Below, piece after piece: positions 1,306-4,400 of a stretch of 6,886 nucleotides of DNA. The first letter of the stretch is position 1. Each line of letters begins with the position of its first letter. The position numbers and the translations under genes were made by a program. This DNA comes from a virus (lineage: Duplodnaviria > Heunggongvirae > Uroviricota > Caudoviricetes): IMG/VR virus record IMGVR_UViG_2731957842_000003; one strand, 5' to 3'. Under the pieces are notes generated by a model. That model ran no database searches. It was not told the origin of the DNA and saw only the letters and a program-made list of their open reading frames with translations.

Positions 1306-1488
1306 TCAGAATTTATAACCGACCCCAACGATGAATCCGTCAGTACGCCAGTCGCCACTGCCGGAGCCTTCATAAGCAATATCAACAACGACGGACGCTG
1401 CCGGATTAATCTGTATACCTGCACTCCACGCCACTGAGGTATGCCGCATTGCACTTTCGTCCCTGGCGGTGGTCGTCTCTTTCATATA
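1306..1488 (-). pseudogene. lom: Lom outer-membrane protein, C-terminal ~60-codon fragment; no start codon, N-terminal ~145 codons including the signal peptide are deleted
   Basis: Minus-strand translation [60 protein letters not shown] then TGA (1308-1306). This matches the recalled C-terminus of lambda Lom. The frame differs from J and homology begins abruptly at the J junction. Confidence 0.8.
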
Positions 1489-4400
1489 CCTGACGGCCAG
1501 TCCACACTGCTTTCACGCTGGCGCGGAAAAGCCGCGCTCGCCGCCTTTACAATGTCCCCGACGATTTTTTCCGCCCTCAGCGTACCGTTTATCGTACAGT
1601 TTTCAGCTATCGTCACATTACTGAGCGTCCCGGAGTTCGCATTCACACTGCCACTGATATCCGCATTTTTAGCGGTCAGCTTTCCGTCCGGTGTCAGGGA
1701 AAAGGCCGGAGGATTGCCGCCGCTGGTAATGGTGGGGGCCGTCAGGCGCTTCAGGAACACGTCGTTCATGAATATCTGGTTGCCCTGCGCCACAAACATC
1801 GGCGTTTCATTCCCGTTTGCCGGGTCAATAAACGCGATACGATTGGCGGCAACCAGAAACTGGCTCAGTTTGCCTTCCTCCGTGTCCTCCATGCTGAGGC
1901 CAATACCCGCGACATAATGTTTGCCGTCTTTGGTCTGCTCAATTTTGACAGCCCACATGGCATTCCACTTATCGTTGGCGTCCTTCCACTCTTTCGAAAA
2001 CTCCTCCAGTCTGCTGGCGTTATCCTCCGTCAGCTCGACTTTTTCCAGCAGCTCCTTGCCGAGATGGGATTCGGTTATCTTGCCTTTGAAAAAATCCAGG
2101 TAACCTTCCGCATCATCGCTCGCCCGACCGACGGCCTCCACGAATGCCGATTTGCCAACGGTGTTCACACTGCGGATATAAAAGTAATAATCATGGCCCG
2201 GTTTGATATTGATACTGGCGGCTATCCAGTACAGCGCCGTACCAAGATAACGCGCGCTGGTTTCAACCTGTCTGATATCCGCAATCTGCTTTTCCGAGAA
2301 CCAGAACTCAAACTGTACCGTCGGGTCATAAACGGCAAGATGCGGCGTGGCGGTTATCTGAAAATAGCCCGGCGTCAGCTCAATCCTCGACGGTGCTGCC
2401 GGTGCGGCAATCCGGAACGATACCGACGCCGGATCGCCCTGCTGCCCCCACGCATTTACCGCCCGGACTGTCAGCCTGTAGTTCCCCAGCGCCAGTTGCG
2501 TGAAGCGGTATGTGGTTTCCGTCGTCCGGGCCGTGCTGACCAGCCGCTCACTGCCGTCATCCGCTGCCACGGTCAGGCGAAGCATAAAGCTCACGCCCTT
2601 CACCACCTTCGGCGTGTCCCAGCGCGCCAGCACCTGATATTCCCCGCTGTCTGCGGTGACTTCGGCAGTCAGGTGCTGCACCGCGGGCGGCGTGACGCCA
2701 TTCACCGTGCCGCTCTGGTCGCCGTCAAAGTGCGCCCCGTTATCCACGATGGCTTCTTTTTCGGGTACATGCTGCACGGCGGTGATGGCATACGTGCCGT
2801 CGTCGTTCTCACGGATACTCACGCAGCGGAACAGGCGCTGGCGCAACGTCGGCAACTTCAGCCCCCATACGCTGTATTCAGCAACGCCGTCAGGAACACG
2901 GCTCACTTTCACCTTCACGCCGTCGGTGACGGACTGGACCTCCACGCTGACCGGATTACCCTGCCCGTCAACCAGGCTTATCAGCGTGGTGCCGGAGGAT
3001 GGCAGCGTGATTTCACGGTCGAGCGTCAGCGTCCGGGTCTGGCTGTTCACCGCCAGCACGCGACCACCGATGCTGATACCGGCATAGTCATCATCGCAGA
3101 TTTCAATAACATCGCCCGGCACATGGCGAAGCCCTTCTGCGCCCACGCTGAAATCCACGGTCTGCGTTTCCAGCAGTTCCGTTTTAATCAGCCACAGCCC
3201 GGCTCGGTGTGCCTGCCCCCGACTGGTACAACCAAAGGCATCCATCTTCGTGACATTACGACCGTAACGGGCAATGGCCTGCGTATCTTCAACAAGCTCT
3301 GTCGCCGTCTCCCAGCCGTTATTCGGGTCAATCCAGTTCACCTCAACGGCATTATGGCGGTCCTTCAGGGCGCTGAAGCTGTAGCGGAACGGCGCACCAT
3401 CATCCGGCATCACCACATTACTGCGGTTATAGGTCCACACCTTATCTGATGGTCGGTCCTGCACGAACGTCAGCGTCTGCCCGTTCCATACCGGCATACA
3501 GCGCATCGCCGAGCAGAAATCACTGAGCACATCCCACGCCTTACGCTGTGTGGTCAGGTACGCATTACAGGTAATGCGCGGCTCCGTGCCGCCAAAGCCG
3601 TCCGGCACCGACTGGTCGCAGTACTGGCCGATGACATACAGCGCCCATTTATCCACATCCGCCGCACCAAGACGTTTCCCCATGCCGTAGCGCGGGTGGG
3701 TCAGCATATCCCACAGACACCAGGCCGGGTTGTTGCTGTATGCCGGTTTTAACGTTCCGTCCCAGATACCGCTGTATTGCCGCGTCTGCGGGTTATAGTT
3801 CGACGGCACCTGCAGAATACGCCCGCGAAGATGATAATTACGGCTCACCTGCTGGCTGCCGAACTGCTCCGAATCCACCTTTACGCCGACCAGTGCCGTG
3901 TTCGGGTAGCCCTGTTTCACATCGATGATTTCGGTGTATGACGACCAGAGCGTTTTGTTCTGCAGCTGGTCTGTGGTGCTGTCCGGCGTCATTCTGCGCA
4001 TCCGGATATTAAACGGGCGCGGCGGCAGGTTATCCACCACCACCGAGGCCAGATACTGCGAGGTGGTTTTGCCCTTAATGGTGATGTCTTTTTCCGTCAC
4101 CCAGCCACCATTACGCTGTATCTGAACCAGCAGGCGAACTTCCGACGGATTCCGGTCCCCCTTTGAGGTGGTTTCCACCAGTGCCTGCACACCGAAGGTA
4201 AAGCGCAGTCGGTCGATGTTTGCCGACGTGATGGCGCGGGTGATCGGCGTGTCATATTTCACTTCTGTACCGAGCACCGTCTCGGAGCCGGAGGATTCAA
4301 ATCCCTCCGGCGGTGTCTGCTCCTGCTCACCTGCCCGGAACACCACCGTGACGCCGGATATATTGGTATTCCCCTCTCCCCATGATGATCTGCTTGTCAA
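1482..4400 (-). pseudogene. J: Tail tip / host-specificity protein J, internal fragment (roughly lambda J residues 52-1017); lacks the N-terminus and the C-terminal receptor-binding region
   Basis: The 972-aa track ORF is near-identical to recalled lambda gpJ from ...[30 protein letters not shown] through ...[15 protein letters not shown]. The only in-frame 'start' is a TTG at 4400 inside the junction with no convincing RBS. The reading frame stops one codon after homology ends (WPSGI*), where Lom homology begins. Confidence 0.88.

Follow-up and report, generated by a model that had tools for sequence, protein, structure and literature searches.

An 845-bp deletion joint between J and lom in a lambda-like prophage remnant of a bovine and farm Escherichia coli ST10 lineage

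A remnant of a lambda-like prophage occupies the DNA stretch analysed here (IMG/VR virus record IMGVR_UViG_2731957842_000003; 6,886 nucleotides, referred to below as the window). The window is exactly the entire contig JTFE01000074.1, reversed, of assembly GCA_001441335.1 from the clinical bovine-mastitis isolate E. coli VL2874, which belongs to phylogroup A and sequence type 10 (ST10) (PMC4725725). Every gene in the window lies on the minus strand. The remnant of the tip attachment protein gene J (J', 1482..4376, minus strand) comprises codons 56-1018 of lambda J and then Ile and a TGA stop (1484-1482), and the remnant of lom (1306..1488, minus strand) comprises codons 147-206 and the stop codon. 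The two meet at a deletion joint (joint 2; 1487..1490, minus strand), which holds one retained copy of GGTA. At its other end J' abuts a truncated terminase large subunit gene at a separate deletion joint (joint 1; 4377..4378, minus strand). In this study, we focused on the J/lom joint.

Read on the minus strand from 1500 to 1471, the window is CTGGCCGTCA GGTATATGAA AGAGACGACC. BLAST comparison with lambda aligned window 1487-4376 with lambda 18559-15670 (J) at 97.0% identity and without gaps, and window 1-1490 with lambda 20889-19401 (the 3' end of lom and the side tail fibre gene stf) at 99.7% identity. The two alignments overlap by four nucleotides, GGTA, at window 1490-1487. The tetranucleotide is common to lambda J (18556-18559, codon 1018/1019) and lambda lom (19401-19404, codon 146/147), and one copy was kept. 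When the sequences were displayed base by base, the breakpoint in lambda J fell between ...GGCCGTCAGGTA and CCCGT and that in lambda lom between ...CTCCCGGGTA and TATGAAAG, while the window reads ...GGCCGTCAGGTATATGAAAG across the joint. The segment that is absent is lambda 18560-19404, which amounts to 845 bp and is not a multiple of 3. J and lom abut directly at the joint, where no insertion sequence (IS) end, recombination site, filler or foreign bases were found, and no longer direct or inverted repeats were aligned with the endpoints. The initial annotation, made from the sequence of the window alone, had placed a deletion joint at 1482-1492 and had proposed a pairwise alignment with the lambda J-lom region as a check; this alignment confirmed both the coordinates and the description of the sequence.

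In the J frame the joint reads TCA GGT ATA TGA (Ser-Gly-Ile-stop), in agreement with the earlier reading that J ends at SVDWPSG followed by Ile and a stop. The last native residue is Gly1018. The truncation of J had been put at about 115 C-terminal residues, and the exact loss is 114 (residues 1019-1132). lom is kept from Tyr147 to Phe206, that is, for the 60 last codons that had been described as fused out of frame to J. No reading frame runs through the joint from J into lom: the TGA of the J frame comes one codon past it, and lom continues in another frame. An open reading frame (ORF) of 59 amino acids that starts at Met148 (window 1485-1306) encodes a protein identical to lambda Lom 148-206, with one synonymous base change. 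The ATG of Met148 overlaps the stop codon of J' (ATGA). This overlap derives from the native lom sequence TATATGAAA and is regarded as incidental. The 37-mer that covers the joint is GTGGACTGGCCGTCAGGTATATGAAAGAGACGACCAC. As a separate observation, lambda-derived contigs of three unrelated assemblies (L007, L011 and L012) all start at lambda 19404 (ATATGAAAGAG...), and these starts fall within 0-3 nt of the lom-side breakpoint; the common start probably reflects a break in the assembly graph at the point where lom of lambda and other copies of lom converge.

The distribution of the joint was examined in 5,426 complete E. coli genomes, which together contain approximately 21,000 J/lom places (median, 3 per genome). 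The joint was present in a single one of these genomes, that of VG48B2 from a Swiss farm environment, in which RefSeq marks the J and lom pieces as pseudogenes ('incomplete; missing C-terminus' and 'incomplete; missing N-terminus', respectively). Through the exact 59-amino-acid lom' ORF, the identical junction and the same context beside potB were found in GCA_964050635.1, GCA_001576495.1, GCA_001748625.1 and GCA_001748545.1. Six independent assemblies thus share the joint, among them a closed chromosome (VG48B2), a 3.4-Mb contig and the source contig, which indicates that it is not an artefact of assembly. Members of this lineage are approximately 100% identical across the window. The joint 37-mer gave no matches in GTDB species representatives, IMG/VR or JGI metagenome contigs. 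The joint is real, inherited and restricted to one lineage.

As a hotspot test, a split query composed of lambda 18150-18450 and 19440-19649 was compared with the complete genomes. The J and lom halves were brought together in four genomes (VG48B2, EC102, SJ7 and WB61), all with different endpoints, and each bridging deletion was seen in a single complete genome. A deletion hotspot was therefore rejected. The bridging sites lie approximately at 4906-4918 in EC102 (L015), at 4950 in SJ7 (L016) and at 4700-4780 in WB61 (L017), and the low-quality phage record D2 (OM475427.1; L003 4458-4525) contains yet another J-lom joint. The J and Lom pieces in the other bridging prophages are flagged partial in RefSeq. 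As in the window, the J 3' end of EC102, SJ7, WB61 and D2 was lost together with, or up to, the 5' part of lom. However, they differ from the window in endpoints, J alleles and chromosomal sites, and these differences indicate that they are sporadic independent events rather than a family. In other strains, lom was inactivated not by deletion but by point changes (L006, about 6270-6305; L013, about 187-282). In GCA_054926935.1, TAC is changed to TAA at lom Tyr139, and the same 59-amino-acid ORF is called as a separate gene.

The initial annotation had suggested a search of related strains for the intact J 3' end and lom 5' end. Both are present at the same chromosomal site in BCE049 (NZ_CP042250.1, 2.065-2.088 Mb), also a bovine mastitis isolate, which carries an intact prophage beside potB. 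The order of this prophage is nu1, A, the full block of head and tail genes, J (3,399 nt), lom (621 nt), a tail-fibre gene (2,325 nt) and tfa, followed by potB-potA-pepT. The protein accessions of nu1 and tfa are the same in BCE049 and VG48B2. Compared with BCE049, the window shows 100% identity over 1,072 nt in the J direction from the joint; towards lom/stf, identity is 100% over 1,050 nt, up to the only mismatch in 1,490 nt. The sole local difference is the 845-bp gap, and BCE049 contains the segment. Since the flanks match for about 1 kb on each side and the 845 bp are present in BCE049, the joint results from a simple deletion. The two prophages thus share the integration site, the nu1 and tfa proteins, lom-stf and the final 1,072 nt of J', whereas BCE049 differs in having the full A-to-J morphogenesis block, a J of 1,132 codons and a lom of 206 codons. 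In addition, the middle and 5' parts of the BCE049 J are a different allele from J' (97.5% identity overall).

J' is a mosaic, in which window 3300-4376 is 99.9% identical to J of O103:H2-type prophages and window 1487-2558 shows no difference from the BCE049/lambda type. Compared with lambda J, J' has 64 synonymous and 17 non-synonymous codons and no stops, and intact J alleles are found with 99.9-100% identity to its segments. These differences therefore represent inherited allelic variation rather than decay after inactivation, which fits a recent deletion event. The description of the tail genes as nearly lambda-identical is accurate for lom/stf (99.7%) and for the final 1 kb of J, but not for J overall, a mosaic at 97%, nor for the window terminase, which is approximately 68% identical to that of lambda.

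The deletion removed most of the receptor-binding domain of J. PF12421 ('Tip attachment protein J, C-terminal receptor binding domain') corresponds to lambda J 1001-1132 and was not found in J' by Pfam; 114 of its 132 residues were taken by the deletion. J' keeps FNIII-A_GpJ, Phage-tail_3, Ig_J, Ig_J_second and Phage_Tail_Tip, while Ig_GpJ_C and any C-terminal domain replacing the receptor-binding domain were not found in the Pfam search. The solved structures 8XCJ, 8XCK and 8IYK span the receptor-binding region of lambda J. Cryo-electron microscopy places the receptor-binding domain at the C-terminus of gpJ, where it is Ig-like and has loops L1-L4 that insert into LamB (PMC11101478). The absence of PF12421 and this placement support the earlier statement that the lost part is the region of LamB recognition. 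Because the 845-bp segment of BCE049 differs from that of lambda at 3 positions, the lost J end is the lambda-type LamB-binding domain. J' is also without its N-terminal 55 residues, and its frame is open for 963 codons.

The Lom fragment matches positions 142-199 of the 199 positions of the Ail_Lom profile (the last 58) and no others. Residues 1-146, the first 70% of Lom, are gone, including the signal peptide MRNVCIAVAVFAALAVTVTPARA, as had been noted before. The J-lom intergenic region was removed too, and the expression signals of lom itself were presumably lost with it. The 59-residue fragment would be a leftover, cytoplasmic at best. We infer that J' and the lom fragment are both dead pseudogenes, with no expression or function.

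The J/lom joint is not the only lesion of this prophage. Two internal deletions in tail genes had been proposed; the other deletion exists, but it is not internal to tail genes, since joint 1 runs from terminase A to J. There, terminase A breaks off near codon 431 of its 638 codons and is followed, in a different frame, by J codon 56. Relative to BCE049, 14,363 bp are missing, the microhomology is 2 bp, and the joint was present in none of the 5,426 complete genomes. The deletion removes W, B, C, D, E, FI/FII, Z, U, V, G/T, H, M, L, K and I. Since all head genes and most tail genes were lost with these 14.4 kb, the element cannot make particles. In VG48B2, an extra deletion of 1,639 bp (L002 18372-18373; equivalent to window 3428-5066; 2-bp microhomology, TA) swallows joint 1 plus more of A' and J', which indicates that the locus is still eroding. 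In GCA_964050635.1, an IS21-family element (istA, istB) lies within J' (L004 5072-7642; window about 1829-1843) with a short target duplication. Every lineage member has an IS3 element upstream of cos/nu1. The later lesions in two members, together with the identity to BCE049 around the joint and the near-complete identity within the lineage, support the recent stepwise decay that the initial annotation had proposed. Damage also seems to extend to the early region of the VG48B2 prophage (L002 2854-3192 and 11157-11642): its LexA-family repressor gene has 339 nt, versus 717 nt in BCE049, and the region contains a partial ORF6N gene.

The rest of the window is arranged around these remnants. At the contig end lies a 46-bp IS3 terminal inverted repeat (6841..6886, plus strand), inserted upstream of cos/nu1, and a cos-like region is found between the IS3 end and nu1. 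The terminase small subunit gene nu1 (5639..6187, minus strand) is intact and encodes 182 amino acids (Phage_Nu1). It is followed by the truncated terminase large subunit gene A' (4379..5667, minus strand), whose called product of 446 amino acids includes 17 codons beyond joint 1 and ends at window 4327. An intact intrinsic-terminator-like hairpin with a T-run (1258..1279, minus strand) lies downstream of lom, as in lambda, and the 5' part of stf (1..1242, minus strand; 414 codons) completes the contig. In VG48B2, the full stf product has 774 amino acids, and tfa and then potB follow. The contig is bounded by repeats, the IS3 terminal inverted repeat at one end and the Ala-rich part of stf at the other. 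The IS3 transposase is annotated directly past the window end in VG48B2 and in loci L004 and L008, and in VG48B2 the element is placed between the lysis/bor region and cos-nu1. A 206-amino-acid ORF antisense to stf (window 124-744, plus strand) matches lambda's annotated orf206b in position and length; the Ala-rich codon composition of stf most likely accounts for it. No Rfam family matched in the window, and no promoter-like site was found around the J/lom joint.

Taken as a whole, the J/lom joint is very probably the ordinary scar of an 845-bp deletion in a lambda-like prophage that is decaying in an ST10 bovine/farm lineage. The deletion would have arisen spontaneously within the prophage integrated beside potB, with breaks in the two GGTA tetranucleotides and retention of one copy, and it was probably neutral. 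The 4 bp of microhomology, with no filler, IS end or longer repeat, point to RecA-independent, microhomology-mediated illegitimate recombination, which may have taken the form of replication slippage or of end-joining of a break. A deletion mediated by an IS or a site-specific recombinase was rejected, since no IS end is located at the joint and IS3 and IS21 lie elsewhere. Spontaneous deletions of the short-homology type are reportedly represented in E. coli by the lacI deletions of Albertini and colleagues from 1982. As in short-homology deletions of lacI and in those attributed to alternative end-joining, the endpoints in the window lie in a short direct repeat of which one copy is kept, the joint is without filler DNA and the size is below 1 kb. 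The 4-bp repeat, however, is at the short end of their range.

The remnant also resembles defective (cryptic) lambdoid prophages of E. coli such as Rac, Qin, DLP12 and e14 of K-12. These, too, are prophages of the lambda type whose head and tail genes were lost by internal deletion and by insertion of IS elements; fragments such as lom', stf and tfa are kept beside the attachment site, and truncated genes are annotated as pseudogenes. Unlike the K-12 prophages, the remnant in the window lies beside potB, belongs to an ST10 bovine lineage and carries a lineage-specific J'-'lom joint (lambda 18559/19405). In Rac, lomR is disrupted by IS5 and not fused to J.

Several points weigh against the interpretation as a deletion scar, or limit it. 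Microhomology of at least 4 bp was obtained in 1.9% of random lambda J/lom breakpoint pairs (200,000 trials), so that the statistical support from the microhomology is modest (P = 0.019), and slippage and end-joining are indistinguishable. Among the whole-length intact J genes of the complete genomes, none exceeded 97.6% identity to J'; the best value is this low because J is mosaic, and the exact ancestor was not among them. Four contigs with the A' fusion product were found in a search for the order of events, each of which also has joint 2 or is too short. No assembly with one joint but without the other was found. Finally, judging from the ATGA overlap and the open frame of J', translation of J' or of the 59-amino-acid Lom peptide would be a formal possibility.

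The same features could be read as signs of selection, in that the loss of the J receptor-binding domain, of Lom or of both was favoured, or that J' and a coupled 59-amino-acid Lom peptide were co-opted by the host. J' is indeed open for 963 codons, its stop overlaps the ATG of lom', and EC102, SJ7, WB61 and phage D2 have likewise lost the J 3' end and the lom 5' end. We nevertheless consider this very unlikely. Bridging deletions occur in only 4 of the 5,426 genomes, with different endpoints and in one genome each; J' has no start of its own and follows a terminase stump that is in another frame; and the Lom fragment has no signal peptide. Moreover, J' was further destroyed by the deletion and the IS21 insertion in lineage members, which argues against selection to keep it. 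Very little weight is given to the version in which the loss was selected, for example because it stopped the production of a LamB-binding or outer-membrane protein, or the host co-opted the products, and in which EC102, SJ7, WB61 and D2 would be convergent cases. It is also conceivable, though highly improbable, that the joint arose not within one molecule but by recombination of J in one prophage with lom in another prophage or on a sister chromosome. The several J/lom copies per E. coli genome and the mosaic of alleles in J' speak for such an exchange, yet both flanks of about 1 kb are identical to one intact prophage at the same site, and the flanking order cos-nu1...stf-tfa-potB is unchanged. 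The crossover shares 4 bp only, which excludes homologous recombination, and an unequal sister-chromatid event would yield the same product by the same class of mechanism.

Two other explanations have practically no likelihood. The source is a short draft contig, and the J breakpoint lies inside a lambda GGTACC and the lom breakpoint 4 nt from a CCCGGG, as would be expected of a mis-assembly or of an engineered lambda vector deleted from KpnI (18556) to SmaI (19397). However, the identical joint is present in six assemblies in a chromosomal context beside potB, and the terminase (68% identity) is not that of lambda. Reasoning from the sequence, a blunt or filled ligation of KpnI/Asp718 and SmaI ends predicts TCAGGGGTAT or TCAGGTACGGGTAT, and not the observed TCAGGTATATG, which fits no cut-and-ligate product; the engineered deletion was rejected on these grounds. 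The idea that the window holds a natural J variant or J-Lom fusion, intact with this architecture, is similarly negligible, and no point in its support was found. The J frame stops one codon past the joint and lom lies in a different frame, no Pfam domain replaces the receptor-binding domain, and the joint is confined to one lineage, with its single occurrence among the complete genomes and the absence of the 37-mer from GTDB representatives, IMG/VR and JGI metagenomes. A homologue spanning the joint in one frame, which according to the initial annotation would speak for an intact gene, was not found in these searches. The stop codon, the frame shift and the distribution exclude an intact fusion gene.

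The J/lom joint is a routine scar of prophage decay whose pieces are already RefSeq pseudogenes in VG48B2. It is of little importance beyond annotation and opens no new biological question. The 37-mer junction could act as a clonal marker for the lineage. The joint also represents a clean natural deletion with 4 bp of microhomology, whose intact parental arrangement can be seen at the same site of the chromosome. It provides a base-by-base record of one erosion step in a lambda-like prophage of the ST10 bovine-mastitis and farm lineage.

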